Assembly: GCA_023383795.1 (NCBI GenBank)
Contig: JAHDYJ010000007.1
Coordinates: 9,363-73,362, forward strand
Direction of reading: 5' to 3'
Source: Burkholderiales bacterium
GTDB lineage: Bacteria > Pseudomonadota > Gammaproteobacteria > Burkholderiales > SG8-39
Length of the DNA stretch: 64,000 nt
Shown: piece after piece, positions 4,874 through 63,760 of the stretch
Numbering within the stretch: the stretch's first letter is position 1
Layout of the letters: every line of letters starts with the position of its first letter
Notes under the pieces: model-generated
Seen by the model: only the letters and a program-made list of their open reading frames with translations
Databases searched by the model: none
What the model was told of the DNA's origin: nothing
Program-made: the position numbers and the translations under genes

Positions 4874-4919
4874 CGCGCCGCCGGCCGACCGTTCACCGCC
4901 CGCCCTGCGCCGCTCGCCG

Positions 4920-6023
4920 ATGAAACCTCCGTTCCGCGCCGACCACGTCGGCAGCCTGCTCCGCCCGCCGGAGCTCGTCGCCGCGCGCGCGCGGCACCGG
5001 CGCGGCGAGCTCGACGCCGAGGGCCTGCGCGCGGTCGAGGACGCGGCGATCCGGGCCGCGGTCGCGCGACAGGAAGCGATCGGCCTGCAGGGCGTCACCG
5101 ACGGCGAGTACCGCCGCGACTGGTGGCATCTCGACTTCCTCGCGCAGCTCGAGGGCGTGACCCTGCACGCGAACCCGGGGCCGAAGTTCGGCGGCACCGA
5201 GGAGCAGCCGCCGATCGCCACCGTGACCGCAAGGGTGCGCTGCACGCGGCCGATCATGGCCGACCACTTCGCATTTCTGAAGTCGGCGACCGCGCGGACC
5301 GCGAAGTTCACGATCCCGTCGCCCTCGATGCTTCACCTGCGCGGCGGACGCGCGTCGATCTCGCGCGCGGCCTATCCCGACCTCGCCGGGTTCTGGGCCG
5401 ACGCCGCCGCGGCCTACCGGGAGGCGATCGCCCACCTCGCCGCGGCCGGCTGCACCTACCTGCAGCTCGACGACGTCGCGTTCGCCTACCTCTGCGACGA
5501 GAAGGTGCGCGCGAGCTGCCGCGCGAACGGCGACGATCCCGATGCACTGCCCGGCATCTATGCCGACGCGATCAACGCCGCCCTCGCCGGCCGGCCGGCG
5601 GGAATGACGATCGCGATGCACACCTGCCGCGGCAACTTCAAGAGCGCGTGGGTCGCCTCCGGCGGCTACGACCCGGTCGCGGAGGCGATGTTCGCGACCG
5701 ACGTCGACGCCTATTTCATGGAGTTCGACAGCGCGCGCGCCGGCACCTTCGCGCCGTTGCGCCTGCTGCCCCGTGACGGGAAGAACCGCGGCAAGAAGGT
5801 CGTGCTCGGCCTGGTCACGACCAAGGTCGGGGCGCTCGAGGACAAGGACGCGCTCAAGCGGCGGATCGACGAGGCCGCGAAGTACGTTCCGCTCGAGAAC
5901 CTGTGCCTCTCGCCGCAGTGCGGCTTCTCCAGCACCCATCACGGCAACGCGCTCTCCGAGGACGAACAGTGGCGCAAGCTCGAGCGGGTGGTCGAGGTCG
6001 CGCGCGAGGTGTGGTCCATGTGA
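4920..6023 (+). CDS. MetE-catalytic-domain-only protein (cobalamin-independent methionine synthase family, about 370 aa)
   Basis: Track ORF, 367 aa: MKPPFRADHVGSLLRP.., TDGEYRR, MHTCRGN and LSPQCGFSS (Zn-ligand-type His/Cys positions). Half the length of true MetE. Confidence 0.8.
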   Translation: MKPPFRADHVGSLLRPPELVAARARHRRGELDAEGLRAVEDAAIRAAVARQEAIGLQGVTDGEYRRDWWHLDFLAQLEGVTLHANPGPKFGGTEEQPPIATVTARVRCTRPIMADHFAFLKSATARTAKFTIPSPSMLHLRGGRASISRAAYPDLAGFWADAAAAYREAIAHLAAAGCTYLQLDDVAFAYLCDEKVRASCRANGDDPDALPGIYADAINAALAGRPAGMTIAMHTCRGNFKSAWVASGGYDPVAEAMFATDVDAYFMEFDSARAGTFAPLRLLPRDGKNRGKKVVLGLVTTKVGALEDKDALKRRIDEAAKYVPLENLCLSPQCGFSSTHHGNALSEDEQWRKLERVVEVAREVWSM

Positions 6024-8908: not shown

Positions 8909-9535
8909 ATGCAGAACTCCGGGGAGCTTGCCTACTGGAACGAGCGCTTCGGCGGCGCGCACTACCACTACGGCACCGCGCCGAACGCCTTCCTCGCGAG
9001 CCAGGCGCATCTGCTGCGCCCCGGGATGAGCGCGCTCTCGGTCGCCGACGGCGAGGGGCGCAACAGCGTCTGGCTCGCCGGGCAGGGGCTCGCGGTCACC
9101 GCCTTCGACTTCTCGCCGCCCGCGGTCGAGAAGGCGCGCAAGCTCGCCGCCGAACGCGGCGTCGCGGTCGACCACCGCCTCGCGGACATCTACGCGTGGG
9201 ACTGGGACGCGCGCGCGTACGATCTCGTCGTCGCGATCTTCATCCAGTTCTCGCCGCCGGCCGAGCGCGCGCAAGTGTTCGCCGGCCTGCGGCGCGCGCT
9301 GGCGCCGGGCGGCCTGCTCCTCCTGCAGGGCTACACGCCGCGCCAGCTCGACTACAAGACCGGCGGGCCGCCGCACGCCGAGAACATGTACACCGAGGCG
9401 CTCCTGCGCGAGGCGTTCGGCGGGCTCGAGATCGCGCACCTCGTCGAGCACGACGACGAGATCCACGAAGGCGCGCGCCACAGCGGCATGTCGGCGCTCG
9501 TCGACCTCGTGGCGCGCAAGCCCGCGCGGGGATGA
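8909..9535 (+). CDS. Class I SAM-dependent methyltransferase
   Basis: Last 208 aa of track ORF 6458..9535, starting MQNSGELAYWNERF. Shows ALSVADGEGRNSVWLAGQG..FDFS and LAPGGLLLLQGY. Confidence 0.7.
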   Translation: MQNSGELAYWNERFGGAHYHYGTAPNAFLASQAHLLRPGMSALSVADGEGRNSVWLAGQGLAVTAFDFSPPAVEKARKLAAERGVAVDHRLADIYAWDWDARAYDLVVAIFIQFSPPAERAQVFAGLRRALAPGGLLLLQGYTPRQLDYKTGGPPHAENMYTEALLREAFGGLEIAHLVEHDDEIHEGARHSGMSALVDLVARKPARG

Positions 9536-9548
9536 CGGCGGGGCGCCG

Positions 9549-10931
9549 TCAGGCGGCGAAGATCTTCCCGGGGTTCATCAGGTTCTGCGGGTCGAGCGCG
9601 GCCTTCACCGCGCGCATGACCGCCACCGACTCGCCGTGCTCGGCCGCGAGGAACGCGATCTTGCCGGCGCCGATGCCGTGCTCCCCGGTGCAGGTCCCGC
9701 CCATCGCGAGCGCGCGGTGCACCAGGCGCTCGTTCAGCGCCTCGGCGCGCGCGAGCTCCCCGGCGTCGCCGGGCTTCACCAGCACGAGCAGGTGGAAGTT
9801 GCCGTCGCCGACGTGGCCGACGATGGGAACGACGAGGCCCGACGCGTCGATGTCGCGCCGCGTCTCCACGATGCACTCGGCGAGCCGCGAGATCGGCACG
9901 CAGACGTCCGTGATGAGCGCCTTCGAGCCGGGCCTGAGCGCCATGCCGGCGTAGAGCGTGTTGTCGCGCGCCTGCCACAGGCGGCTCCGCTCCTCGGGCC
10001 GCGTCGCCCACTGGAACCCGAGCCCGCCGCGCTCGCGCGCGATCTCGCCCAGCATCCCGGCCTGCTCGGCCACGGCGGCCTCGGTGCCGTGGAACTCGAA
10101 GAAGAGCGTGGGCCGCTCGGCGTAGTCGAATCCCGCGTGCGCGTTCACGCCGCGCATCATCACGTCGTCGAGCAGCTCGATCCGCGCGACCGGGATGCCG
10201 GACTGGATCGCCGTGATCACGGTGCTCACCGCATCGGCGAGGGCCGGGAAGGCGCACACCGCCGAGCTGATCGCCTGCGGCACCGGATGCAGCCTGAGCG
10301 CGATCTCGGTGATCACGCCGAGCGTGCCCTCCGAGCCGACGAAGAGGCGCGTCAGGTCGTAGCCCGCGGCGGACTTGCGCGCGCGCGTCCCGGTGCGGAT
10401 CACGCGTCCGTCGGCGAGCACGACGGTGAGGCCGAGCACGTTCTCGCGCATCGTGCCGTAGCGCACGGCCATCGTGCCCGAGCCGCGCGTCGCGGTCATG
10501 CCGCCGAGCGAGGCGTCGGCGCCGGGGTCGATCGGGAAGAAGAGCCCGGTGTCCTTGACGTAGGCGTTCAGCTGCTTGCGCGTGACGCCCGCCTGCACGC
10601 GGCAGTCGAGGTCGTCCACGTTGACCTCGAGCACGCGGTTCATGCCGCCGAGGTCGATGCACACCCCGCCGCGCACCGCCCCGACGTGCCCCTCGAGCGA
10701 GGTCCCCGTGCCGAAGGCGATGACCGGCGTGCGGTGCTTCGCGCAGAGCCGCACGATCTCGGCCACCTCCTCGGTCGACTGCGGGAAGACGACCGCGTCG
10801 GGCGGCTGCGAGGGGTGGTAGGACTCGCCCTGCCCGTGCCGCTCGCGCACCGCCGGGTTGGTGGACAGGCGCTCGCCGAGCAGCGGCGCGAGGGCGGCGG
10901 CGAGCGACCGCTCGACGGACTCGACAGGCAT
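9549..10931 (-). CDS. FAD-linked oxidase (GlcD / D-lactate dehydrogenase family)
   Basis: C-terminal 460 aa of track ORF 9549..11450, starting MPVESVERS at 10931. Shows FPQSTEEVAEIVRLC, GTGTSLEGH, GTCTGEHGIGAGK. The upstream part of the track ORF is junk. Confidence 0.85.
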   Translation of the reverse strand: MPVESVERSLAAALAPLLGERLSTNPAVRERHGQGESYHPSQPPDAVVFPQSTEEVAEIVRLCAKHRTPVIAFGTGTSLEGHVGAVRGGVCIDLGGMNRVLEVNVDDLDCRVQAGVTRKQLNAYVKDTGLFFPIDPGADASLGGMTATRGSGTMAVRYGTMRENVLGLTVVLADGRVIRTGTRARKSAAGYDLTRLFVGSEGTLGVITEIALRLHPVPQAISSAVCAFPALADAVSTVITAIQSGIPVARIELLDDVMMRGVNAHAGFDYAERPTLFFEFHGTEAAVAEQAGMLGEIARERGGLGFQWATRPEERSRLWQARDNTLYAGMALRPGSKALITDVCVPISRLAECIVETRRDIDASGLVVPIVGHVGDGNFHLLVLVKPGDAGELARAEALNERLVHRALAMGGTCTGEHGIGAGKIAFLAAEHGESVAVMRAVKAALDPQNLMNPGKIFAA

Positions 10932-11127: not shown

Positions 11128-13401
11128 ATGCCGCGGCACGCGATACCGTTGGACGGCGAGGTCGGCCGGCTGGAGCGGTCGGGGGCGCAGCTCGAGCGTG
11201 CGCTGAAGGCGTCGCGCGCGCAGCAGGCCGCGACCGCCGAGATCCTGGGGACGATCAGCCGCGCGCCGACCGACCTCGGCCCGGTGCTCGACACCATCGT
11301 CGCCCACGCCGCCCGGCTCTGCGAGGCGCACTTCGCGTTCGTCATGCTGAACGAGGGCGGGCGGCTCGCGCTCGCGGCGCACACCGCCTGCACGCCCGAG
11401 TTCGTCGAGTTCCTCAAGGGCGGGAAGGCGCCGAGCCGCGCGAGCACCACCGCCCGCGCGGCGCTCGAGCGCCGGCCGGTTCAGGTGCCCGATTTCCAGG
11501 CGGAGCCCGGCATGGTCGTCACCGACGCGCACCGCGTCGAGAACGTGCGCACCGTCCTCGCCGTGCCCATGTGCCGCGGCGATGCGCTGCTCGGCGTGTT
11601 CTCGGTCTGGCGGCGCGAGGTGCGGCCCTTCTCCGACGAGCAGGTCCGCCTGCTCGAGACCTTCGCCGACCAGGCGGTTATCGCGCTGGAGAACGTCCGC
11701 CTCCTGCGGGAGCTCGAGGCGCGCAACGGCGAGCTCACCGAGGCCCTGGACCGCCAGACCGCGATGGCGCAGATCCTCGCGGTGATCAGCAGCTCGCCCG
11801 CCGATGCGCGCCCGGTCTTCGAGACCATCGTGCGGAACGCGGTGACGCTCTGCCGGAGCCGCTTCGCGAACGTCTTCCTGTACGACGGCGAGCTGCTGCA
11901 CTACGCGGCCAGCCACAACACCGGGCCCGACTACGTCGAGCTGCTTCGCGCCAAGTACCCGATGCGCCCGGACCGCTCGCAGGTGTCCGGGCGGGTGGTG
12001 CTCGCCGGCGCGGTGGTCCGGGTGGAGGACGTGAGCGTCGATCCGGAGTACGACCAGCGCTTTCCGGCGGCGATGGGCTGGCGGCGGATGCTCGGCGTCC
12101 CGATGCTGCGCGAGGGCCGGCCGCTCGGCGCCGTCGTCGTCGGCTGGGCGGAGGCCGGACCGGTGCCGCGCGCCCGGGAGGAGCTGCTGCAGGCCTTCGC
12201 CGACCAGGCCGCGATCGCGATCGCGAACGTCAGGCTGTTCGACGAGATCCAGGACAAGAGCCGCCGGCTCGAGCTCGCCAACACGTACAAGTCGCGCTTC
12301 CTCGCCGCGGCGAGCCACGACCTGCGCCAGCCGCTGCACGCGCTGAACCTGTTCGTCGCGCAGCTCAAGGCCGAGCGCGATCCCGCCGCGCAGGACCGGC
12401 TCGTGGCGCGCATCGACGCGGCGGTCGATGCGATGAACGAGCTCTTCGATGGTCTGCTCGACATGTCGAAGCTCGACGCCGGCGTGCTCGAGGTCCGCCC
12501 GACCGAGTTCCCGGTCCAGCAGCTCCTCGCGCGCATGGAAACGACGTTCGCGGCGGCCGCGCGCGAGAAGGGGCTGCGGCTGCGCGTGGCGCCGCGCCGC
12601 GTGTGGATCCGCAGCGACTTCAGCCTGCTCGAGCGGATCCTGCTCAACCTGGTGTCGAATGCGGTGCGCTACACGACGCGAGGCGGCGTGCTGATCGGCT
12701 GCCGCCGCCGCGGCGGCGAGCTGCGCCTGGACGTGCTGGACACCGGCCCGGGCATCCCCGCCGACCAGCGGCGCAACGTCTTCGGCGAGTTCTACCGGCT
12801 CGCGCCGCCGGAGCCGGCTCGACGCGGCGGCCTCGGTCTCGGACTCGCGATCGTCGAGCGGCTGGGCGAGCTGCTCGGGCACCCGGTCGAGCTCGCCTCG
12901 CGGCTCGGCACGGGATCGCGCTTCTCGGTCTCGGTGCCGCAGGCGCCGGCGCGCGGGTTTTCGGCGGAGCCTCCCGCCGCGGCTGCCGCGTTCGCCGATC
13001 CGCTGCGCGGCAGGTTGATCGTCGTGATCGACGACGACGCGCTGGTGCTGGACGGCATGCGCGGGCTCCTGCGGAGTTGGCGCTGCGAGGTCGTGGCCGC
13101 GAGCTCGGGCGCGGCCGCGCTGGCGCGGCTCGCCGAGCTCGGCCGGCCGCCCGACGCGATCGTGTCCGACTATCGGCTGGCCGACGGCGCGAGCGGCATC
13201 GACGCCATCGCCGCCCTGCGCGGCGCGCTGGGCGTCGCCATCCCGGCGTTCCTCATCAGCGGCGACACGGCGCCCGAGGGGCTGCGCGACGCCCGCGCGA
13301 GCGGCTATCTGCTGCTGCACAAGCCGGTGCCGCCGATCGCGCTGCGCGCCGTGCTCGGCCGGCTTCTGGCCGCGCGCGCGACGCCGCTCGCGGCCGCGTA
13401 G
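11128..13401 (+). CDS. Hybrid sensor histidine kinase: coiled coil, two GAF domains, HisKA, HATPase, receiver
   Basis: Track ORF, 757 aa. Two repeats of the ..ILxxISxxPxDxxPVxxTIVxxAxxLC.. GAF-type block. H-box FLAAASHDLRQPL, N/G boxes LVSNAVRYT and DTGPGIP..GLGLGLAIV, C-terminal receiver VIDDD..SDYRLADG..LHKP. Confidence 0.9.
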   Translation: MPRHAIPLDGEVGRLERSGAQLERALKASRAQQAATAEILGTISRAPTDLGPVLDTIVAHAARLCEAHFAFVMLNEGGRLALAAHTACTPEFVEFLKGGKAPSRASTTARAALERRPVQVPDFQAEPGMVVTDAHRVENVRTVLAVPMCRGDALLGVFSVWRREVRPFSDEQVRLLETFADQAVIALENVRLLRELEARNGELTEALDRQTAMAQILAVISSSPADARPVFETIVRNAVTLCRSRFANVFLYDGELLHYAASHNTGPDYVELLRAKYPMRPDRSQVSGRVVLAGAVVRVEDVSVDPEYDQRFPAAMGWRRMLGVPMLREGRPLGAVVVGWAEAGPVPRAREELLQAFADQAAIAIANVRLFDEIQDKSRRLELANTYKSRFLAAASHDLRQPLHALNLFVAQLKAERDPAAQDRLVARIDAAVDAMNELFDGLLDMSKLDAGVLEVRPTEFPVQQLLARMETTFAAAAREKGLRLRVAPRRVWIRSDFSLLERILLNLVSNAVRYTTRGGVLIGCRRRGGELRLDVLDTGPGIPADQRRNVFGEFYRLAPPEPARRGGLGLGLAIVERLGELLGHPVELASRLGTGSRFSVSVPQAPARGFSAEPPAAAAAFADPLRGRLIVVIDDDALVLDGMRGLLRSWRCEVVAASSGAAALARLAELGRPPDAIVSDYRLADGASGIDAIAALRGALGVAIPAFLISGDTAPEGLRDARASGYLLLHKPVPPIALRAVLGRLLAARATPLAAA

Positions 13402-55238: not shown

Positions 55239-56120
55239 ATGAAAGTCGGATTCATCGGCCTCGGCCGCATGGGCGGCGGGATCGCCGGCCGCCTGCAGGG
55301 CGCGGGCCACGAGCTCGTCGTCTACAACCGCACGCGCGAGAAGGCCGCGGCGCTCGAGAAGGCGGGCGCGAAAGTCGTCGGCTCGATCGCCGAGGCGTGC
55401 GCCGGGCGCGAGGTCGTGGTGACGATGCTCGCGCACGACCAGGCGCTCGAGGAGGTCGCGCTCGGCGCCGGCGGCATCCGCGGCGCGCTGGCGAACGGCG
55501 CGATCCACGTCGCGATGGGCACGCACGGCGTCGCCGCGACGCGCGCGCTCGCGCGCGCACACGCCGAGGCCGGCCAGGTCTACGTCGCCGCGCCGGTGCT
55601 CGGCCGGCCCGAGGTCGCAGCGGCCGGCCAGCTCGGCATCGTCGCGGCCGGCCCCGCCGACGCGGTGGCGAAGTGCCGCCCGCTCTTCGACGTGATGGGC
55701 CGGCGCACGTTCGAGGCCGGCGCCGACCAGTCGGCCGCCGCCGCGATCAAGCTCGCCAACAACTTCGTGCTCGGCTGCGCGATCGAGGTGCTCGGCGAGG
55801 CGTTCGTGCTCGCCGAGAAGCACGGCGTCGCGCGCGCCCTGCTCTACGACGTGCTGACCGACGTGCTGTTCGCCTGCCCCGCCTACAAGGGCTACGGCGA
55901 CATCATCGCGAAGCAGGACTGGGACCGCGTCGGCATCACGGCGCGCCTCGCGCTGAAGGACTGCAACCTGGCGCTCGCCGCCGCCGAGGGCGTCGAGGTG
56001 CCGCTGCCGAGCGGCAGCGCCTGGCGCGACCGGTTGATCGGCGCGATCGCGCACGGCCTCGCCGAGAAGGACCAGTCGGTGGTCGCGGTGGCGCAGGCGC
56101 GGGCGAGCGGGCTGGGGTGA
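55239..56120 (+). CDS. NAD(P)-dependent beta-hydroxyacid dehydrogenase (3-hydroxyisobutyrate / 6-phosphogluconate dehydrogenase NAD-binding family)
   Basis: Track ORF, 293 aa. MKVGFIGLGRMGGGIA; ..AAPVLGRPE..; ..AAAIKLANN.. Confidence 0.88.
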   Translation: MKVGFIGLGRMGGGIAGRLQGAGHELVVYNRTREKAAALEKAGAKVVGSIAEACAGREVVVTMLAHDQALEEVALGAGGIRGALANGAIHVAMGTHGVAATRALARAHAEAGQVYVAAPVLGRPEVAAAGQLGIVAAGPADAVAKCRPLFDVMGRRTFEAGADQSAAAAIKLANNFVLGCAIEVLGEAFVLAEKHGVARALLYDVLTDVLFACPAYKGYGDIIAKQDWDRVGITARLALKDCNLALAAAEGVEVPLPSGSAWRDRLIGAIAHGLAEKDQSVVAVAQARASGLG

Positions 56121-56258
56121 CAAACGGCGAACGGTGAACGGTAAGCGGCAAGCGGAAAAAGCGGTGCCGCGGATTGCGCGGAGCCGAGAGCGCATCCCGA
56201 TAGCGCGGCGCGCGTTGCGCGCTGCGCGTCCCGTTCACCGCTTACCGTTCACCCGTCT
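56121..56258. repeat. ORF-less inverted heptanucleotide-array element (arms 56121-56155 and 56231-56258)
   Basis: Left arm: CAAACGG CGAACGG TGAACGG TAAGCGG CAAGCGG. Right arm: CCGTTCA CCGCTTA CCGTTCA CCCGTCT. A perfect 16-bp inverted repeat GGTGAACGGTAAGCGG (56133-56148) / CCGCTTACCGTTCACC (56238-56253) is separated by 89 nt. The element fills the convergent gap and overlaps the SDR stop codon. Confidence 0.85.
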
Positions 56259-57024
56259 TCGGGGCCAGCTGCAGGTCCGCGCCCCCGAGGATCATCCGGT
56301 TCCAGGTCGGCGAGACGACGATCTCGTTCAGGCACATGTGCGGCGGCGCCTCGGCGACGAAGCGCACGATGCGGGCGAGGTCCGCGGGCTTCAGCATCCG
56401 CGCCTCCTCCTCCGTGCTCGGCGGCACCGGCCGCGCCTTCAGGATCGCCGTCGCGACCTCGCCCGGGAAGATCACGCAGCCGCGGATGCCGTTCACGCCT
56501 TCCTCGATGTTGAGCGAGGCAGTCATCGATGCGAGCGCATGCTTGCTCGCGTTGTACGCCGGACCGGCGAGATAGCCGTCGTAGCGTCCGTACCACGACG
56601 AGACGTTGATCACGACCCCGTCGCGCCGGGCGCGCATCGCCGGCAGCGCCGCGGCCGTGCAGTAGAAGGCGCCGTTCAGGTTCACGCCGAGCACGCGCTC
56701 CCAGCTCTCGAGCGCGAGCTCGTTCCAGTGGCGCTTCGGCACGTTCGTCCCGGCGCAGTTCACCAGGACGTCGATGCGGCCGTGGCGCTCGAGGATCTCG
56801 TGCGCGGCGTGCGCCACCTGCTTGCGCTCGGCCACGTCGAGCGGCATCTTCTCGACCCGGCCGCCGGCGGCGGTGACGAGCGCGCGCGTCTCCTCGAGCG
56901 CCTCGGAGCGCCGCCCCGATATCACCACGAGCGCGCCGGCGCCCGCCAGCTCCACCGCCACCGCCTGCCCGATGCCGCTGCCGGCCCCGGTGATCCACGC
57001 GATCCTGCCGCTCGATGCGCTCAT
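56242..57024 (-). CDS. Short-chain dehydrogenase/reductase (SDR)
   Basis: Track ORF, 260 aa. TGAGSGIG, NCAG, YNASKHA. GGGAGG before the ATG. The last codons (..TGER*) lie inside the heptad array. Confidence 0.88.
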   Translation of the reverse strand: MSASSGRIAWITGAGSGIGQAVAVELAGAGALVVISGRRSEALEETRALVTAAGGRVEKMPLDVAERKQVAHAAHEILERHGRIDVLVNCAGTNVPKRHWNELALESWERVLGVNLNGAFYCTAAALPAMRARRDGVVINVSSWYGRYDGYLAGPAYNASKHALASMTASLNIEEGVNGIRGCVIFPGEVATAILKARPVPPSTEEEARMLKPADLARIVRFVAEAPPHMCLNEIVVSPTWNRMILGGADLQLAPKTGER

Positions 57025-57087
57025 TTCCGCCGCCTCCCGATCCGTTCGCCGCCCCTGCTATCATCGCGCCGCCAGGGGGGAGACACA

Positions 57088-57495
57088 ATGACCGGAGCGG
57101 AGTCCATCGCCTACCTCGTCGCGCGCGTGCTGTCGACCGGAATCTGGATCGCGGCGGGCTGGTACAAGTGGGCGCACTACGAAAAGACGATCGGCGAAAT
57201 GGTCCAGCACGGCGTCCCGCTGCCGCGCCTGGTCCTGCCGCTCGTGCTGGCCCTCGAGTTCGTCGGCGCGGCGATGCTCGTCTTCGACGTCCACGTCTGG
57301 GCCGCGGCGCTCGCCTGGATCGCCTTCACCATCCCGGCGAGCATCATGTACCACTTCCGCTTCATGGTGCGCGAGGGCACGATCGACTTCGTCCAGTTCC
57401 TGCTCGGCTGGAAGAACGTCTCCATCATGGGCGGCTTGATCGCGCTGATCCTGCTCGACAAGAGCCGCCCGGCATGGCTGTTCGGCGGCGGCTGA
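57088..57495 (+). CDS. DoxX-family small membrane protein
   Basis: Last 135 aa of track ORF 56134..57495, starting MTGAESIAYLVARVL with GGGGGAGA upstream. Four hydrophobic helices. Confidence 0.6.
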   Translation: MTGAESIAYLVARVLSTGIWIAAGWYKWAHYEKTIGEMVQHGVPLPRLVLPLVLALEFVGAAMLVFDVHVWAAALAWIAFTIPASIMYHFRFMVREGTIDFVQFLLGWKNVSIMGGLIALILLDKSRPAWLFGGG

Positions 57496-57505
57496 CCGGC
57501 GGACC

Positions 57506-59059
57506 CTACCGCCGCTCGTAGCGCTCGAGGAGCTTCTCGGAGCCGAACTCGCGCGTCGCGACGTGGGCGAACCCGGCCCGCGCGAGCAGCGCCGGCACCT
57601 CGTCCTGCGGGTCGTACACGTCGCGCACGCGCCGCACCAGCACGAGCGTGCGCCGCCCTTCGATCGCGCGCGCGAGGCCGGCGAGCCCGTCGGGCTCGAC
57701 CACCGGCACGCAGCGGCTCGTCGGGTACTCGACCGCGAGGCCGGGCGCGGGGTACGGCCGGGGCACGCCGCGCATCGCCCGCGCGACCTGCGCCTGCGCG
57801 GCCGCATGCGCGAGCGGCAGCTCGAGCTCGTTCGGCAGCAGCAGCACGAGCGCGTCCTCCGGCGTCGCCGCGAGCGCGCGCACGATCGCGTTCCACGGCT
57901 CCTTGCGCTGCCCCTGCGCGAGCAGCAGATGGTCGGCGAAGAGGCTCGCCGCCACGAGCGGCAGGAAGACCGCCATCCGCAATGCGGCCGAGCGCAGGCG
58001 CGCAATCGCCGCTGCGACGCCGATGCAGGCCGGCAGCGCGATCCCGATCAGCACGCGCGCGATCAGGATCGGCTTCAGGAGCAGGCTCGCCGCCAGCGTG
58101 AACAGGATCGGCCCGACCGCCATGCACCCGAGCAGCAGCGCGGCGCCGCGACGGCCGCTGCGCCAGAGGCCGGCGAGCCCGAGCACGAAGAGGCCGGCGA
58201 CCGCCGCCACCACCCACGGCAGCGGTGCGCCGAGCACCAGTCCGACCTCGTGCAGCACGTACCCCGCGGTCGGCCACGGGATCCAGAACGCATCGATCAC
58301 GCCGCGCGCCTGCGCGATGTAGGTCGGCAGGTACGGCGCCCACGCAGCCGCGATCGCCAGCGCGACCAGGGCGACCGCGCGGCCGTGGCGGCGCGCGCCG
58401 GGCTCGATCGCCATCCAGGCGAGCGCCGCGCAGGCGAGGCTCGCGAGCACGAACACCGCGGTGTTGCGCAGCCAGACCGCGAGCGCGCCGCCCGCGGCGA
58501 GCGCGAACCAGGCGCCGAGCCCTTCGCGCACGCCCGGCCGCGCGGAGCTGCCGGCGGCCGGGTCGCCGCGGCAGGTGACGCGCAGGCCGCCGTAGAGGAC
58601 GAGAGCGAACGCGACCGTGACGAGCGCGTAGGCGCGCGCCTCCTGGGCGAACTCGATCTGAAACGGCGCGACCGCGAGGAGCGCCGCGGCGAAGAACCCG
58701 ACCGCCGGAGCGATCACGCGCGCCGCGCCCCACAGCACCGCCACCGCGAGGACGCCGGCGAGCGCGCTCGGCGCGCGCAGCGCGGCGGCGCCGTCGCCGG
58801 CGAGCGCGACCCACCCCTTCAGGATCAGCGGATAGAGCGGAGGCTGGGGATCGCAGGTCGGAACGAGCCAGGCGAGCGCGCCGAGCGGTTGGCGCGCGGC
58901 CCACCACGAGTAGGCCTCGTCGAGCCACACGGGCTCGCGGCCGAGGCCGTGGAAGCGCAGCGCCGCCGCCACGGCGAGCAGCAGGCCGAGACCCGCCCAC
59001 TCGACGCGCGACGCCGCGCCGCGCGCTGCGCCGGCCGCCTTGCCCTGCCCCGCGCCCAC
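57506..59059 (-). CDS. Polytopic membrane glycosyltransferase, GT39/ArnT-like (PMT_2-type)
   Basis: Track ORF, 517 aa (GTG start after GGGGAGGGGGAA). N-terminal ..FHGLGREPVWLDEAYSWW.. is typical of this family; many TM helices and a soluble C-terminal domain. Confidence 0.65.
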   Translation of the reverse strand: MGAGQGKAAGAARGAASRVEWAGLGLLLAVAAALRFHGLGREPVWLDEAYSWWAARQPLGALAWLVPTCDPQPPLYPLILKGWVALAGDGAAALRAPSALAGVLAVAVLWGAARVIAPAVGFFAAALLAVAPFQIEFAQEARAYALVTVAFALVLYGGLRVTCRGDPAAGSSARPGVREGLGAWFALAAGGALAVWLRNTAVFVLASLACAALAWMAIEPGARRHGRAVALVALAIAAAWAPYLPTYIAQARGVIDAFWIPWPTAGYVLHEVGLVLGAPLPWVVAAVAGLFVLGLAGLWRSGRRGAALLLGCMAVGPILFTLAASLLLKPILIARVLIGIALPACIGVAAAIARLRSAALRMAVFLPLVAASLFADHLLLAQGQRKEPWNAIVRALAATPEDALVLLLPNELELPLAHAAAQAQVARAMRGVPRPYPAPGLAVEYPTSRCVPVVEPDGLAGLARAIEGRRTLVLVRRVRDVYDPQDEVPALLARAGFAHVATREFGSEKLLERYERR

Positions 59060-59117
59060 TTCCCCCTCCCCGAGCGCGGCGGCGCCTGCTCCGAGACGCT
59101 CGCCGCGGGCAATCAGC

Positions 59118-59813
59118 TCACCGGCGCGCGAACTGCGCCGCGCCGAACATGTTCTCGCGCCACTGCGGATCGTCCGGCGGCGGCCGGCGTACGTGCGCGA
59201 GCACCTGCAGCGCGCGCTGGACCGCGGGCCGCGCGTTGATGGCGTCGAACCAGCGCTTGACGCGCGGATAATCCTCCAGCGCGACGCCCTGCCGCTCGTG
59301 CGAGCGCAGCCAGGGCATGATCGCGATGTCGGCGATCGAGTACTCCGCGCAGCCGACGTACTCGCTCTCCGCGAGCCGCTTGTCGAGCACGCCGTACAGC
59401 CGGTGGGCCTCCTTCGTGTAGCGCTCGATCGGATACGGGAGCTTCTCGAGCGCGTAGGCGCGGAAGTGGTGCGCCTGGCCGAGCATCGGCCCGATGTGCC
59501 CCATCTGGAACATCAGCCACTGCAGCACGGAGTAGCGGTCGCGGACGCTCTCCGGCAGGAGCCGGCCGGTCTTCGCCGCGAGGTACAGCAGGATCGCCCC
59601 CGACTCGAACATGGACATGGGCTTGCCGTCGGGCCCCTCGGAGTCGACGATCGCCGGGATCTTGTTGTTCGGGCTGATCGCGAGGAATTCCGGCCTGAAC
59701 TGCTCGCCGGCGCCGATGTTCACCGCGTGGACGCGGTACTCGAGACCGGTCTCCTCGAGCATGATGTGGATCTTGTGCCCGTTGGGCGTCGGCCAGGTGT
59801 AGAGGTCGATCAT
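59118..59813 (-). CDS. yfcG: Nu-class glutathione S-transferase-like disulfide reductase (YfcG-like)
   Basis: Residue 26 onward of track ORF 59118..59888: MIDLYTWPTPNGHKIHIMLEE..GEQFRPEFLAISPNNKIPAIVD..FESGAILLYLAAKTG, near-collinear with my memory of E. coli YfcG. The track's N-terminal extension is translated heptad repeat. Confidence 0.85.
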   Translation of the reverse strand: MIDLYTWPTPNGHKIHIMLEETGLEYRVHAVNIGAGEQFRPEFLAISPNNKIPAIVDSEGPDGKPMSMFESGAILLYLAAKTGRLLPESVRDRYSVLQWLMFQMGHIGPMLGQAHHFRAYALEKLPYPIERYTKEAHRLYGVLDKRLAESEYVGCAEYSIADIAIMPWLRSHERQGVALEDYPRVKRWFDAINARPAVQRALQVLAHVRRPPPDDPQWRENMFGAAQFARR

Positions 59814-59827
59814 TCGCGAGACAGTTT

Positions 59828-59883
59828 GGCAGTTGGCAGCGGGCAGTTGGCAGTGGGCAGTTGGCAGTGGGCCGTGGACGGTG
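59828..59883. repeat. Solo tandem heptanucleotide array, 8 units of GGCAGTT/GGCAGTG type
   Basis: GGCAGTT GGCAGCG GGCAGTT GGCAGTG GGCAGTT GGCAGTG GGCCGTG GACGGTG. Lies 14 nt upstream of the yfcG-like start. Same heptad as 62097-62131. Confidence 0.9.
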
Positions 59884-59942
59884 CTCACGGAGCCACGGGC
59901 GCGCGCATATTACACGTGTTCTTCGGGTACGCTCACCACTCC

Positions 59943-60950
59943 TCAATACTCGCTCAAGCGCACCACCTGCTTGCCGAGGTTCTCGCCGCGCAGCATGCCG
60001 ATGAAGGCCCGCGGTGCGTTCTCCAACCCATGCGCGACCGACTCGAAATACCTGAGCTTGCCCTCGGCATGCCAGCCCGCGAGCTGGCGAAGCGCTTCGG
60101 GCCAGACCTCGAGCCGGTCCGAAACGATGAATCCCTGCATGCGGATGCGGTTCACGAGCACCGCGCCGAGGTTGCGCACGGGATAGGCTGCGGTCGCGTT
60201 GTACTGCGACACCAGTCCGCAGATCGTCACGCGCGCGAACGGATTGGTGAGCGCGAGCACCGTGTCCAGCACCTCGCCGCCCACGTTCTCGAAGTCGACG
60301 TCGACGCCGTCCGGCGCGGCGCGCTCGAGGTCCTCGCGCAGCCGCCCGGCCTTGTAGTCGACGCACGCGTGGAAGCCGAGCTCCTGGACGACGTGCGCGC
60401 ACTTGACCGCGCCGCCGGCGATGCCGACCGCGCGGCAGCCGTGCATGCGCGCGAGCTGCCCGACCACGCTGCCGACCGCGCCGGCGGCGGCCGACACCAC
60501 GACCGTCTCGCCGGCCTCGGGCCGCGCCATGTCGAGCAGCCCCATCCAGGCGGTGACGCCGGGCATCCCGAGCACGCCGAGATAGTGCGAGAGCGGCGCG
60601 ACGGCCGGATCGACCTTGCGCAGCGCGGCGCCGTCGGAGAGCGCATAGAGCTGCCAGCCGAGCGACCCGGTGACGAACTCGCCCGCGCGGAACTGCGGGC
60701 TGCGCGAGGCGATCACCTCGCCGACGGTGCCGCCGATCATCACCTCGCCGAGCTCCGCGCGCTTCGCGTAGGACTTCGCGGCGTTCATGCGCATCCGCAT
60801 GTAGGGATCGAGCGAGAGCCAGTGGTTGCGCACCAGCACCTGCCCGTCGGCCGGCTGCGCCACCGGCGACTCGACGATGCGGAAGTCGGCCTCCGTCGGG
60901 AAGCCGCTCGGCCGGCTCGCAAGCAGGACCTGCAGGTTGCGCATGGTCAT
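59943..60950 (-). CDS. NADP-dependent oxidoreductase, medium-chain reductase family (YncB / alkenal-one reductase type)
   Basis: Last 335 aa of track ORF 59943..62162, starting MTMRNLQVLLASRPSGFPT. ATG overlaps the upstream stop (ATGA). ..VSAAAGAVGSVVGQLA.. Confidence 0.85.
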   Translation of the reverse strand: MTMRNLQVLLASRPSGFPTEADFRIVESPVAQPADGQVLVRNHWLSLDPYMRMRMNAAKSYAKRAELGEVMIGGTVGEVIASRSPQFRAGEFVTGSLGWQLYALSDGAALRKVDPAVAPLSHYLGVLGMPGVTAWMGLLDMARPEAGETVVVSAAAGAVGSVVGQLARMHGCRAVGIAGGAVKCAHVVQELGFHACVDYKAGRLREDLERAAPDGVDVDFENVGGEVLDTVLALTNPFARVTICGLVSQYNATAAYPVRNLGAVLVNRIRMQGFIVSDRLEVWPEALRQLAGWHAEGKLRYFESVAHGLENAPRAFIGMLRGENLGKQVVRLSEY

Positions 60951-62080
60951 CCGAGCGCCGCGAACCGCGCGGCATGGTGGTCCGCGTCGCCGAGCTGGAA
61001 GTCGATCATGGTCAGCCGCTTCGCGTAGTGGCTCGCTGGCATCTCGTCGGTCACGCCCATCCCGCCGTGCAGCTGGATCGCGGCCTGGGCGACGAGCCGT
61101 CCCGAGCGCCCGAGGTGCGCCTTGGCGGCCGACACCGTTCGCGCCCGCTCGACCGCGTCTTCCGCATCGGCCCTGACCGCCGCGAGGAGCGCCAACGAGC
61201 GCGATTGCTCGAGGTGGATGAACATGTCGACCGCGCGGTGCTGGAGCGCCTGGAAGCGGCCGATCGGCTGGCCGAACTGCTGTCGCGTCTTGAGGTAGTC
61301 GAGGGTCTGCGCGTTCAGCGTCTCCATTACGCCGACCGCCTCGGCGCACAACGCGGCCGCGCCGACGTCCACGACGCGCTCGATGATCGGCAGCGCCTCG
61401 TCGAGCGGCCCGAGGAGCGCACCCGCGTCCACCGTCACTCCGTCGAGCGCGACCTCGGCCGCGCGCTGGCCGTCGATGGTGCGGTAGCCGCGCACGCTCA
61501 CACCCTTGGCGGCGCGCTCGACCAGGAACAGGCTGATGCCGGCCGCCTCGCGCTCGGCGCCCGCCGTGCGCGCCGAAACGACCAGGACGTCGGCCTGGGC
61601 GCCCCACGGCACGACGGCCTTGCGCCCGTCGAGCACGAACCCCGTCCCGGCGCGCCGCGCGCGCGCCGCCACCTGCGCGAGATCGTAGCGCGCGCCCGCC
61701 TCGCCGTGCGCGAGCGTGAGCAGCAGCTCCCCGCGCGCCGCGGCCGGCAGCAGGCGCTCGCGCTGCGCCGGCGTGCCCGCGCGCGCGACCGTCCCGGCGC
61801 CGAGCACCGCGCTCGCGAGGTACGGCTCCACGACGAGCCCGCCGCCGAGCGCCTGCATCGCGACGAGCGTGTCGACCGCGGTGCCGCCGAAGCCGCCGTG
61901 CGCCGCCGGCAGCGTCAGGCCGAGCAAGCCCATCTCGGCGAGCTGCGCCCAGATCTCGCGGCTGAAGCCCTCGGCCGAGCGCACGATCGCGCGGCGCTTC
62001 TCGAACGGGTACTCGCGCGCGACGAAGCGGGCGAGCGAGTCGCGCAGGAGCTGCTGTTCCTCGGAGAACGAGAAGTCCAC
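60947..62080 (-). CDS. Acyl-CoA dehydrogenase family protein (small-subunit-like member of a two-gene ACAD pair)
   Basis: Track ORF, 377 aa (GTG start): MDFSFSEEQQLLRDSLARF... C-terminal region ..YAKRLTMIDFQLGDADHH.. lacks the usual YEGT-type catalytic Glu block. Confidence 0.85.
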   Translation of the reverse strand: MDFSFSEEQQLLRDSLARFVAREYPFEKRRAIVRSAEGFSREIWAQLAEMGLLGLTLPAAHGGFGGTAVDTLVAMQALGGGLVVEPYLASAVLGAGTVARAGTPAQRERLLPAAARGELLLTLAHGEAGARYDLAQVAARARRAGTGFVLDGRKAVVPWGAQADVLVVSARTAGAEREAAGISLFLVERAAKGVSVRGYRTIDGQRAAEVALDGVTVDAGALLGPLDEALPIIERVVDVGAAALCAEAVGVMETLNAQTLDYLKTRQQFGQPIGRFQALQHRAVDMFIHLEQSRSLALLAAVRADAEDAVERARTVSAAKAHLGRSGRLVAQAAIQLHGGMGVTDEMPASHYAKRLTMIDFQLGDADHHAARFAALG

Positions 62081-62096
62081 GGCGCTCTCGCGAGTT

Positions 62097-62131
62097 GGCA
62101 GTCAACAGTTGGCAGTTGGCAGAGGTCGCAG
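62097..62131. repeat. Heptanucleotide array, downstream (3') flank of the four-helix-bundle gene
   Basis: GGCAGTC AACAGTT GGCAGTT GGCAGAG GTCGCAG. 62111-62123 (GGCAGTTGGCAGA) is the exact complement of 62540-62552. Confidence 0.85.
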
Positions 62132-62139
62132 CGCGACGG

Positions 62140-62493
62140 TCACGGCTCCACTCCGCGTTCAATGGTGCGCATCAAGCCGACAAGCATTGCCAAGGTCTCC
62201 CGCGTCTGTTCGATCCATTCGCGTCCAACGTCTCTCTCGAAGTAGCCAATCTCCACTCCGACGTAGAGCCGCGTTCTCAGCTCACCGCAGGAACCCTTCG
62301 CGTAGGTCAGGAAGCGCACCTTCTCGTTCAGCGATCCCCGCTCGACTCCCTCTGCAGCATTGCTCGGAACGGAGAGCGCCGAGCGCGTGATCTGATCGCG
62401 AAAGCCAAAGTCGCGCACGCCGCGGAGATGCTTGTGTATTTCTACTGTCAGCCGCGTGGACCTCTTCCACACGTCCAGATCTTCGAAGCTCAT
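62140..62493 (-). CDS. Four-helix-bundle protein (23S rRNA intervening-sequence protein / Avd-like family)
   Basis: In track ORF 62140..62547. ATG 62493 gives MSFEDLDVWKRSTRLTVEIHKHL..FGFRDQITRSALSVPSNAAEG..F..AKGSCGELRT, the hallmark pattern of this family. The track's TTG-initiated extension is translated heptad repeat. Confidence 0.85.
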   Translation of the reverse strand: MSFEDLDVWKRSTRLTVEIHKHLRGVRDFGFRDQITRSALSVPSNAAEGVERGSLNEKVRFLTYAKGSCGELRTRLYVGVEIGYFERDVGREWIEQTRETLAMLVGLMRTIERGVEP

Positions 62494-62528
62494 GACCGGT
62501 TCCGATCGCCGCTCTCCTGGGGCGGTCC

Positions 62529-62569
62529 GCCAACTCCAGTCTGCCAACTGCCGACTGTCAACTGCCGAC

Positions 62570-62570
<1 letters not shown>
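62529..62570. repeat. Heptanucleotide array, upstream (5') flank of the four-helix-bundle gene, inverted relative to 62097-62131
   Basis: GCCAACT CCAGTCT GCCAACT GCCGACT GTCAACT GCCGACT. The last base is the first base (plus-strand sense) of the ACAD stop codon at 62570-62572. Confidence 0.85.

Positions 62571-63760
<1,190 letters not shown>

Follow-up and report, generated by a model that had tools for sequence, protein, structure and literature searches.

Between the two genes of an acyl-CoA dehydrogenase (ACAD) pair in a Burkholderiales bacterium (GenBank assembly GCA_023383795.1, contig JAHDYJ010000007.1) lies a short gene for a four-helix-bundle protein, enclosed on both sides by tandem 7-nt repeats, or heptads, which face each other in inverted orientation. 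The protein belongs to the family PF05635, known from the intervening sequences (IVSs) of 23S rRNA. Here, we describe this element, which we call the cassette, within the 64,000 nt that were analysed (positions 9,363 to 73,362 of the contig, forward strand; hereafter the window), and compare it with the surroundings of related genes and with related repeats.

The cassette at the ACAD junction

The cassette separates an upstream gene (ACAD1), which gave a full-length match to TIGR03204 pimC_large (518 bits), from a downstream gene (ACAD2), which matched TIGR03203 pimD_small (404 bits). Both matches are under the equivalog cut-off, and the ACAD2 protein has a 100% identical counterpart in a Burkholderiales metagenome-assembled genome. 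The open reading frame (ORF) that a sequence-only reading had placed in the gap between the ACAD1 stop and the GTG of ACAD2 is present (Table 1), and the six-copy heptad array described upstream of it was recovered by Tandem Repeats Finder (TRF); the first base of this 5' arm is the last base of the ACAD1 stop codon. The five heptads proposed on the other side (62097-62131) fared less well: the array itself is real, but the two outermost units, GGCAGAG and GTCGCAG, are degenerate. Between the 3' arm and ACAD2, a 12-nt segment may, judging from its sequence, provide a weak ribosome-binding site brought in by the insert; the segment preceding the ACAD2 start differs in each lineage with a different insert. 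No sigma-70-like promoter was found when the cassette was scanned (61800-62900), and the scan for intrinsic terminators yielded a single weak match with a 5-bp stem at the ACAD2 start, which does not exceed the level in shuffled sequence. Rfam gave no relevant match, neither for the whole window at the gathering threshold nor for 55900-62800 at E ≤ 1; the window contains no rRNA, and the PADLOC defence models did not match.

The identity of the protein was clear from curated models, as the sequence-only reading had suspected. It matched PF05635 with 95.2 bits (cut-off 33.8; E 3.3e-27), TIGR02436 with 95.7 bits (cut-off 24) and NF008912 with 162 bits (cut-off 124), and apart from such PF05635-type models neither a transposase nor any other family was detected with Pfam, the TIGRFAM/NCBI hidden Markov models (HMMs) and PADLOC. 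AlphaFold2, applied to the monomer only, predicted four helices (residues 7-23, 31-51, 55-81 and 87-112; pLDDT 96), and Foldseek matched this model to XCC0516 (PDB 2GSC, TM-score 0.86), BT_0352 (2RLD, 0.82) and Avd, the accessory protein of diversity-generating retroelements (DGRs; 4DWL, 0.77). A homopentameric ring has been described for 2GSC and 4DWL (PMC4990558). At the sequence level, identity is 33% to XCC0516 (E 1e-12) as opposed to 10-12% to Avd. Thus, the earlier label of an Avd/IVS-type protein stands with respect to the shared fold and family, but the protein is much nearer to the stand-alone XCC0516 type than to Avd of DGRs, and there is no reverse transcriptase (RT) within about 6 kb. 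The gene is compositionally foreign, with a GC content of 59% and a GC content at third codon positions (GC3) of 73%, compared with a GC3 of 95-97% in its neighbours. Past the sister contig described below, the nearest homologues do not exceed 69% identity, and the few that are named belong to Thermodesulfobacteriota/Desulfobulbales and Desulfuromonas. Only one relative of the subfamily was found among 2.9 million viral contigs, indicating that the family is not phage-borne.

The two arms are inverted complements over 32 nt (62092-62123 and 62540-62571, 88% complementary), and this pairing includes the exact 13-nt complement (62111-62123 and 62540-62552) that had been noticed before. Their complementarity score is 22, whereas 300 shuffles averaged 8.0 and never exceeded 13. 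The sequence GCCAACTGCCRACT has 11 matches in the window at up to two mismatches, with 0.7 expected, and all of them fall within three arrays. In the predicted fold of the operon RNA, which has a minimum free energy (MFE) of -240.5 kcal/mol (z = -5.0), the arms form the closing stem and are paired in both the MFE and the centroid structure. This model predicts that the arms pair in the polycistronic RNA; by analogy with rRNA, excision of the cassette by RNase III is plausible.

Related ACAD operons revealed what the junction looks like without the cassette. The distance from the ACAD1 stop to the ACAD2 start, 489 nt here, is 7 nt in the relatives L092-L095 (ACAD2 76% identical) and 1 nt in L096 (66%), and both protein ends (...NIIAQMVLGL* in ACAD1 and (M/V)DFSFSEEQ... 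in ACAD2) are the same as in these insert-less relatives. The same cassette occurs in the same place on a sister metagenome contig (L001) that is 98% identical across the aligned cassette region, and it is missing from the ACAD operon in all relatives below 98% identity. Hence, the orthologous pairs display empty sites with sharp boundaries and intact coding ends rather than an ancestral ORF of variable position, which bears out the earlier proposal of a discrete insertion module; by this comparison of sequences, the segment 62081-62569 is confirmed as a derived insertion. Other relatives carry different elements at the same junction. In L089 (86% identical), which stems from the same metagenome sample as L001 (3300009873), positions 4897-5000 hold a gene-less heptad bracket of 104 nt (GTGAAGG CGTGAAA ... 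TCTTCAC x5), while L088 (89%, 9761-10000) and L090 (85%, 4946-5063) contain GC-rich palindromes resembling repetitive extragenic palindromic (REP) sequences (GTCATCCCCGCGAAAGCGGGGATCC; CCGCTTGCGCGGAAATGAC). The 1-7-nt gap is thus a hot spot for various kinds of small intergenic element.

Table 1 Features of the ACAD locus and further heptad arrays in the window (aa, amino acids).
Feature	Position	Strand	Basis and details
Upstream acyl-CoA dehydrogenase (ACAD1), PimC-like large subunit, 396 aa	62570..63760	-	Pfam ACAD N/M/C domains; stop TGA 62572-62570
5' arm, G-rich on coding strand	62529..62570	-	AGTCGGC AGTTGAC AGTCGGC AGTTGGC AGACTGG AGTTGGC; TRF period 7, 6.0 copies
35-nt leader, 5' arm to ATG of four-helix-bundle gene	62494..62528	-	sequence GGACCGCCCCAGGAGAGCGGCGATCGGAACCGGTC
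Four-helix-bundle protein gene, 117 aa, MSFEDLDVWKRS...	62140..62493	-	PF05635 / TIGR02436 / NF008912
3' arm, C-rich on coding strand	62093..62131	-	..CTGCGAC CTCTGCC AACTGCC AACTGTT GACTGCC AACT; TRF 62093-62122, period 7, 4.3 copies
12-nt segment CGCGAGAGCGCC between 3' arm and GTG of downstream ACAD	62081..62092	-	read from sequence
Downstream acyl-CoA dehydrogenase (ACAD2), PimD-like small subunit, 377 aa, GTG start at 62080	60947..62080	-	Pfam ACAD domains
Single heptad array with the cassette's own unit (GCCCACT/GCCAACT), 6.7 copies	59826..59872	-	TRF, pattern search
ORF-less inverted heptad bracket, different unit	56123..56254		periodicity scan, sequence, fold, complementarity score 16

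Heptad arrays with and without the gene

Scanning a single genome for each species with an alignment built from homologues yielded 80 loci (34-62% identity) in Gamma- and Betaproteobacteria, Desulfobacterota, Verrucomicrobiota, Planctomycetota, Bacteroidota, Clostridia, Chloroflexota and others, and the 74 with usable flanks were analysed further. In the two 200-nt flanks of the ORF, the best short period was 7 in the great majority of loci and 8 in a minority. Close to the gene, up to 150 nt from the ORF ends, period-7 arrays reached a density of 3.03 per kb, compared with 0.113 per kb in the remaining 494 kb of these loci, which corresponds to a 27-fold enrichment; for period 8 the values were 0.64 and 0.02 per kb, and periods 4-6 and 9-12 were essentially absent. 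Of the 74 loci, 41 had arrays on both sides of the gene, 21 had one on a single side and 12 had none at either side, at a threshold that 2.8% of random 165-nt segments from the same loci also pass. Moreover, the arms were inverted complements in 52 of the 74 loci, as against 2.3% of mismatched partners and 10 of 74 in direct orientation. The polarity of the arms was largely fixed, with G exceeding C in 41 of 47 5' arms and C exceeding G in 43 of 53 3' arms, and the gene ran in the same direction as both neighbours in 42 loci and against both in seven. The units vary by lineage (CAGTTGG, AAGCTAT, CTAGGTG, AGTCATT, GGTTTCT, AACGGGG and others), and the 3' array often starts at, and takes in, the stop codon of the gene. 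As the bracket recurs around homologues in many phyla, the inverted arrays are part of the module and not a local accident.

The genomic positions of these cassettes are diverse. Four lineages carry one at rfbB/rfbA-like junctions. In a BREX operon of Desulfobulbaceae (L097, 2452-2900), the cassette lies between pglZ (PglZ) and brxL (BrxL); there, the stop of the gene overlaps the brxL ATG (ATGA), and the first brxL codons are inside the 3' array AAAACTG AACACTG AGAACTG ATGACTG AAAACTT. On an Anabaena plasmid, it is found at cas6/cas4 after a run of GGTGACA/GGGAACA heptads that exceeds 300 nt (L227, 1126-1488), and the gene has been reported at cmr3/cmr2 in Pleurocapsa (PMC3936711). In Xanthomonas, a GGGAATC x4 array lies between accB and XCC0516 and overlaps the annotated XCC0516 start (Rehm et al. 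2015, supplementary table), so that a crystallised member of the family is itself preceded by a heptad array. In marine Gammaproteobacteria, one arm has expanded to 12-22 or more perfect copies (downstream flanks of L020, L023, L048, L053 and L054; e.g. AACCTAG x22, TCGCAAC x18); such long perfect single arms, there and in Anabaena, imply rapid expansion of the slippage type. Separately, we noted that five genera of different orders (L019, L024, L027, L031, L037) carry the cassette at one syntenic junction (...GYF* / MSHQSDLI...), which reflects either an old insertion or a site preference.

The units are related both to the protein and to the genome in which they occur. The distance between units (minimal over rotations) correlated with that between proteins (Mantel r = 0.14, p ≤ 0.0005), compared with r = 0.055 for the difference in GC content. 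Units at most one base apart accompanied 31% of the protein pairs that were less than 40% divergent, and 1.4% of those at 60-70% divergence. Of 46 other arrays in the loci, 11 had the same unit as the local cassette, compared with 2.5% across loci. Correspondingly, in the relatives of the window one unit is shared by three intergenic sites per genome: GCCNACT in the window and L001, GTCCACT in L088 and CWTCACN in L089. The GCCNACT unit makes up three arrays in the window, and the adjoining stretch of the sister contig has a further one. As far as the sequences tell, this sharing within genomes is concerted evolution or recurrent replacement. The comparison among Burkholderiales relatives is a small sample and was made partly by eye, as a strict automatic periodicity scan missed most degenerate arrays; the claim of genome-specific units consequently rests on reading of the sequences and on the 11/46 statistic. 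Taken together, fixed polarity, genome-specific units and covariation of protein and unit point to a component acting at the DNA level or through protein recognition as well.

Arrays also occur where there is no such gene, beginning with the window itself. The single array at 59826-59872 and the ORF-less bracket with arms at 56123-56155 and 56230-56254 had both escaped the sequence-only reading. The former is C-rich on the coding strand of the operon and ends 12 nt ahead of the GST start codon; it has no four-helix-bundle gene, and a facing G-rich arm was not found in the window (score 5), while one exists in L089 and L090. A C-rich array stands just upstream of the GST start in five related genomes (L001 8643-8699, L088 ~12270-12330, L089 7237-7266, L090 7300-7329 and the window), and its unit differs by genome (GCCAACT, GTCCACT, CATCACC, CCTCACT). 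The loop upstream of this array contains a conserved promoter-like box, CGTGTAAnATGCGC, which is present too in the array-less L092. The 56123-56254 bracket lies between two convergent genes, each of its arms starting at a stop codon with the TGA within a heptad. Its G-rich arm (AACGGCG AACGGTG AACGGTA AGCGGCA AGCGG) and C-rich arm (CCCGTTC ACCGCTT ACCGTTC ACCC) are separated by a spacer of 74 nt. This unit (AACGGTG/AAGCGGC type) resembles the one flanking a Pseudomonas homologue in L019, and from the bracket one would predict a further four-helix-bundle gene, cognate to it, somewhere else in the genome. A 55-nt tandem repeat at 1102-1225 (2.3 copies, 92% match; TTCGTTCCCCGCAGAAGGAGGGTTACGGGAGGGAACCCGGGCGGGTTACCTCCTG) is unrelated to the heptad arrays.

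To look at the association from the side of the repeats, metagenome contigs were scanned for exact CAGTNGG x3, which gave 85 arrays at 80 loci; the gene was then sought by tblastn with 29 queries and, among all ORFs within 800 nt, with a profile HMM. Among the 47 arrays flanked by 500 nt or more in each direction, one (about 2%) adjoins a PF05635 gene, and so does one of the 85 overall. The idea that the arrays are specific to the four-helix-bundle gene consequently failed, about 98% of the CAGTNGG arrays having no such gene next to them. Inverted partners were found for 18 arrays, all with the G-rich arm preceding the C-rich arm and none in the opposite order; their loops measure 17-91 nt, except for one of 362 nt with nested palindromes.

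Proposed mode of action and competing explanations

We consider it probable, with considerable room for doubt, that segment 62081-62569 is a copy of a widespread selfish element of the IVS type, in which a promoter-less PF05635 gene is held within inverted arrays of ~7-nt units. Having inserted into the 1-7-nt gap between the PimC/PimD-like subunit genes of its Burkholderiales host, the cassette would be carried along in the operon RNA by read-through transcription. Its arms would then form an imperfect duplex of ~32-45 bp from which the gene is extruded as a loop, and RNase III would cleave this duplex as it does in the homologous 23S rRNA IVSs. Cleavage would release the message of the gene, separate the upstream from the downstream ACAD message and abolish the ancestral translational coupling. 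Such self-removal at the RNA level may be what renders the element tolerable in rRNA as well as in tightly coupled operons. More speculatively, the protein, a pentameric ring in solved relatives, may recognise the heptad arrays and help to maintain or spread them, in which case ORF-less brackets and single arrays would be its non-autonomous relatives.

A much wider proposal, which we regard as unlikely at present, is that PF05635 genes and the intergenic heptamer arrays of prokaryotes form one system. The pentamer would recognise about five 7-nt units and would drive, or together with a host polymerase or an RT would template, the formation of genome-specific brackets, their homogenisation and their spread. 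Its non-autonomous products would then include single arrays as well as brackets and rRNA IVSs that lack an ORF, and the G-rich strands that run inward 5' to 3' from both sides would be expected from 3'-end extension of two broken host ends.

Several observations weigh against the selfish IVS-type cassette. Among the mismatches within the arms of 54 loci, G-U pairs were not in excess over A-C (78 G-U, 102 A-C, 155 other); selection on the RNA is therefore not required for complementarity, which may simply reflect one unit occurring in both orientations. A target-site duplication is not definable, the ancestral spacer being just 1-7 nt and different among relatives. Recent transposition was not observed, as identical copies of protein P0001, and likewise of P0006, were found in one context only. 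The covariation of protein and unit could be plain co-inheritance. At the ADH/GST site of L089 and L090, the bracket arms flank the promoter-like box that is shared with L092, which is a poor fit to a simple transposon or bracket moving in one piece. The gene is rare next to CAGTNGG arrays, and it could have lodged secondarily in arrays that came first. We also know of no catalytic, nuclease or recombinase motif in the cassette protein. Finally, the gene may, from sequence comparison, be decaying rather than functional: its copies in the window and in L001 (6001-6354) differ by seven non-synonymous and no synonymous changes, as compared with synonymous divergence (pS) of 0.03-0.10 and non-synonymous divergence (pN) of 0.004-0.03 in the neighbours. 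The changes at conserved or near-invariant positions (K10R, L15P, Q34R, G70A) sit in the L001 copy, so that it is this copy which seems to be decaying; decay of the IVS gene has also been reported for Coxiella.

Some of these points would be accommodated if the brackets came first, that is, if a hairpin-forming repeat spread or grew by itself, e.g. by slippage, and the gene survived only in the loop of a bracket, a safe harbour that is processed out of the RNA, with a protein unrelated to the arrays. The large surplus of arrays over genes speaks for this, as do the common ORF-less brackets with short loops, one of them in the window, the ORF-less bracket with another unit at the ACAD junction of L089 and the arms that can flank ancestral host sequence. 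It sits badly, however, with the covariation of units and protein across phyla (the closest homologues from Planctomycetota, Verrucomicrobiota and Gammaproteobacteria, for instance, have units of the CAGTNGG type at their sides), and with the frequent position of the gene's stop within the 3' array, which suggests that gene and array are one unit; nor is a mechanism known that would move the gene alone. On balance, we doubt that the brackets are primary. Alternatively, the arrays might be terminal inverted repeats of a transposon-like element at the DNA level, with derivatives similar to MITEs (miniature inverted-repeat transposable elements), the protein acting as mobility factor alone or with a host enzyme and RNA pairing being incidental. 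The fixed outside-to-inside polarity of the arms, the missing G-U excess, the genome-specific units and a gene-to-bracket ratio like that of autonomous to non-autonomous elements agree with such an element, and a role of the IVS ORF in mobility was proposed by Ralph and McClelland 1993 (cited in PMC4990558). On the other hand, the protein is a 117-aa helical bundle without a known nuclease or recombinase motif, neither target-site duplications nor identical copies at different sites were seen, and the sense bias within operons (42 vs 7) is not expected of a purely DNA-level element, all of which makes this explanation quite improbable.

Two further explanations concern the gene rather than the arrays, and we give very little credence to either. 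Its co-transcribed position and sense orientation would suit a functional partner of the ACAD pair, such as a chaperone or regulator, beside ordinary simple-sequence repeats that are there by chance. The absence of the gene from the same operon in more distant relatives and its foreign composition led us to reject this; in addition, the family is found in unrelated operons, and the 27-fold enrichment of arrays around it is at odds with chance. Even more remote is the view that the gene encodes the Avd of a DGR. The fold is shared, and PF05635 matches Avd-like proteins (PMC10053308), but neither an RT nor another DGR component lies up to ~6 kb away in either direction on the annotated sister contig, where Pfam detected metabolic and transport genes only (template and variable repeats were not specifically searched). 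Together with the low identity to Avd compared with XCC0516, the missing RT led to rejection of the DGR reading, and the solitary subfamily relative in viral contigs does not favour it either.

Relation to known elements and implications

With the 23S rRNA IVSs of Leptospira and Coxiella that carry an S23p/PF05635 ORF, the cassette shares the protein family encoded in the loop and complementary termini that form a long stem. It differs in lying between two protein-coding cistrons with no rRNA involved, so that coupling is broken instead of rRNA being fragmented, and in having arms that consist almost wholly of heptads. Processing by RNase III, plausible for the cassette, is supported by experiment in Coxiella: for the IVS in helix 45 of C. 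burnetii 23S rRNA, rapid amplification of cDNA ends mapped the RNase III cuts inside the 28-bp terminal stem, the PF05635-family ORF is directly preceded by two to three GACAGAT heptamers of variable copy number, and the element is regarded as selfish (PMC4990558). XCC0516 and BT_0352 are alike in fold, and XCC0516, which lies next to accB, additionally in sequence and in the heptads ahead of it; both are structural-genomics proteins without assigned function, and flanking repeats were never tied to them. The IVS protein family has been known since 1993 and was crystallised twice without a function emerging. Avd, in turn, is a pentameric, basic accessory factor that binds nucleic acid and the RT. 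The cassette protein has its four-helix-bundle fold and family, unlike it in sequence and in the missing RT, and heptad brackets are not a described feature of DGRs.

Tandem intergenic 7-nt units of variable copy number are themselves well known, e.g. as the cyanobacterial short tandemly repeated repetitive (STRR) sequences, GGGAATC in Xanthomonas and GGGGAYT in Nostoc. Of the 186 heptamer arrays of Xcc, 70 form convergent inverted pairs (PMC4692102), and across 7,006 genomes heptamers were described as the 'most abundant intergenic periodic repeat', for whose function the authors saw 'no clear clue' (bioRxiv 10.1101/309039). In these two studies the arrays are treated as candidates for G-quadruplexes or phase variation or left unexplained, and the PF05635 gene is unmentioned. 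Not all units are capable of forming a G-quadruplex, the CAGTTGG of the cassette being an example. REP sequences and their doublets (REPINs), together with the REP-associated tyrosine transposases (RAYTs), resemble the present system in combining many short, inverted, hairpin-forming and genome-specific repeats with a rare gene that is flanked by them. However, RAYT is an HUH transposase of the IS200/IS605 type, whereas the gene flanked here encodes a small helical bundle of PF05635 with no known catalysis, and the cassette arms are periodic arrays in place of a single palindrome. As in MITEs and transposons, terminal inverted repeats are in a fixed outside-in orientation, but the cassette has no recognisable transposase.

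We found no publication that ties PF05635 genes in general to flanking heptad arrays; subscription journals were mostly outside this search, and an earlier description is possible. While the cassette is an IVS-type element in an mRNA operon, the general association of gene and bracket is the more interesting result, in particular as the annotation of very many bacterial genomes includes PF05635-family genes (at least 596 loci). For the host, the cassette replaces a translationally coupled junction of 1-7 nt between two enzyme subunits, so that RNA processing or polarity could affect subunit stoichiometry. The occurrence of the gene inside cas operons has been read as a functional association (PMC3936711); our findings suggest that its 'associations' with CRISPR-Cas, BREX or metabolic operons are probably incidental insertions. 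The gene-in-bracket finding provides a concrete, testable hypothesis for both the IVS protein and the intergenic heptamers, and it is supported by the fixed polarity of the arms, by units that track protein and genome, and by the many-fold excess of gene-less brackets. If both indeed belonged to one system, this would explain why 7 nt is the most over-represented intergenic periodicity in bacteria and, at the same time, what role the IVS protein has.

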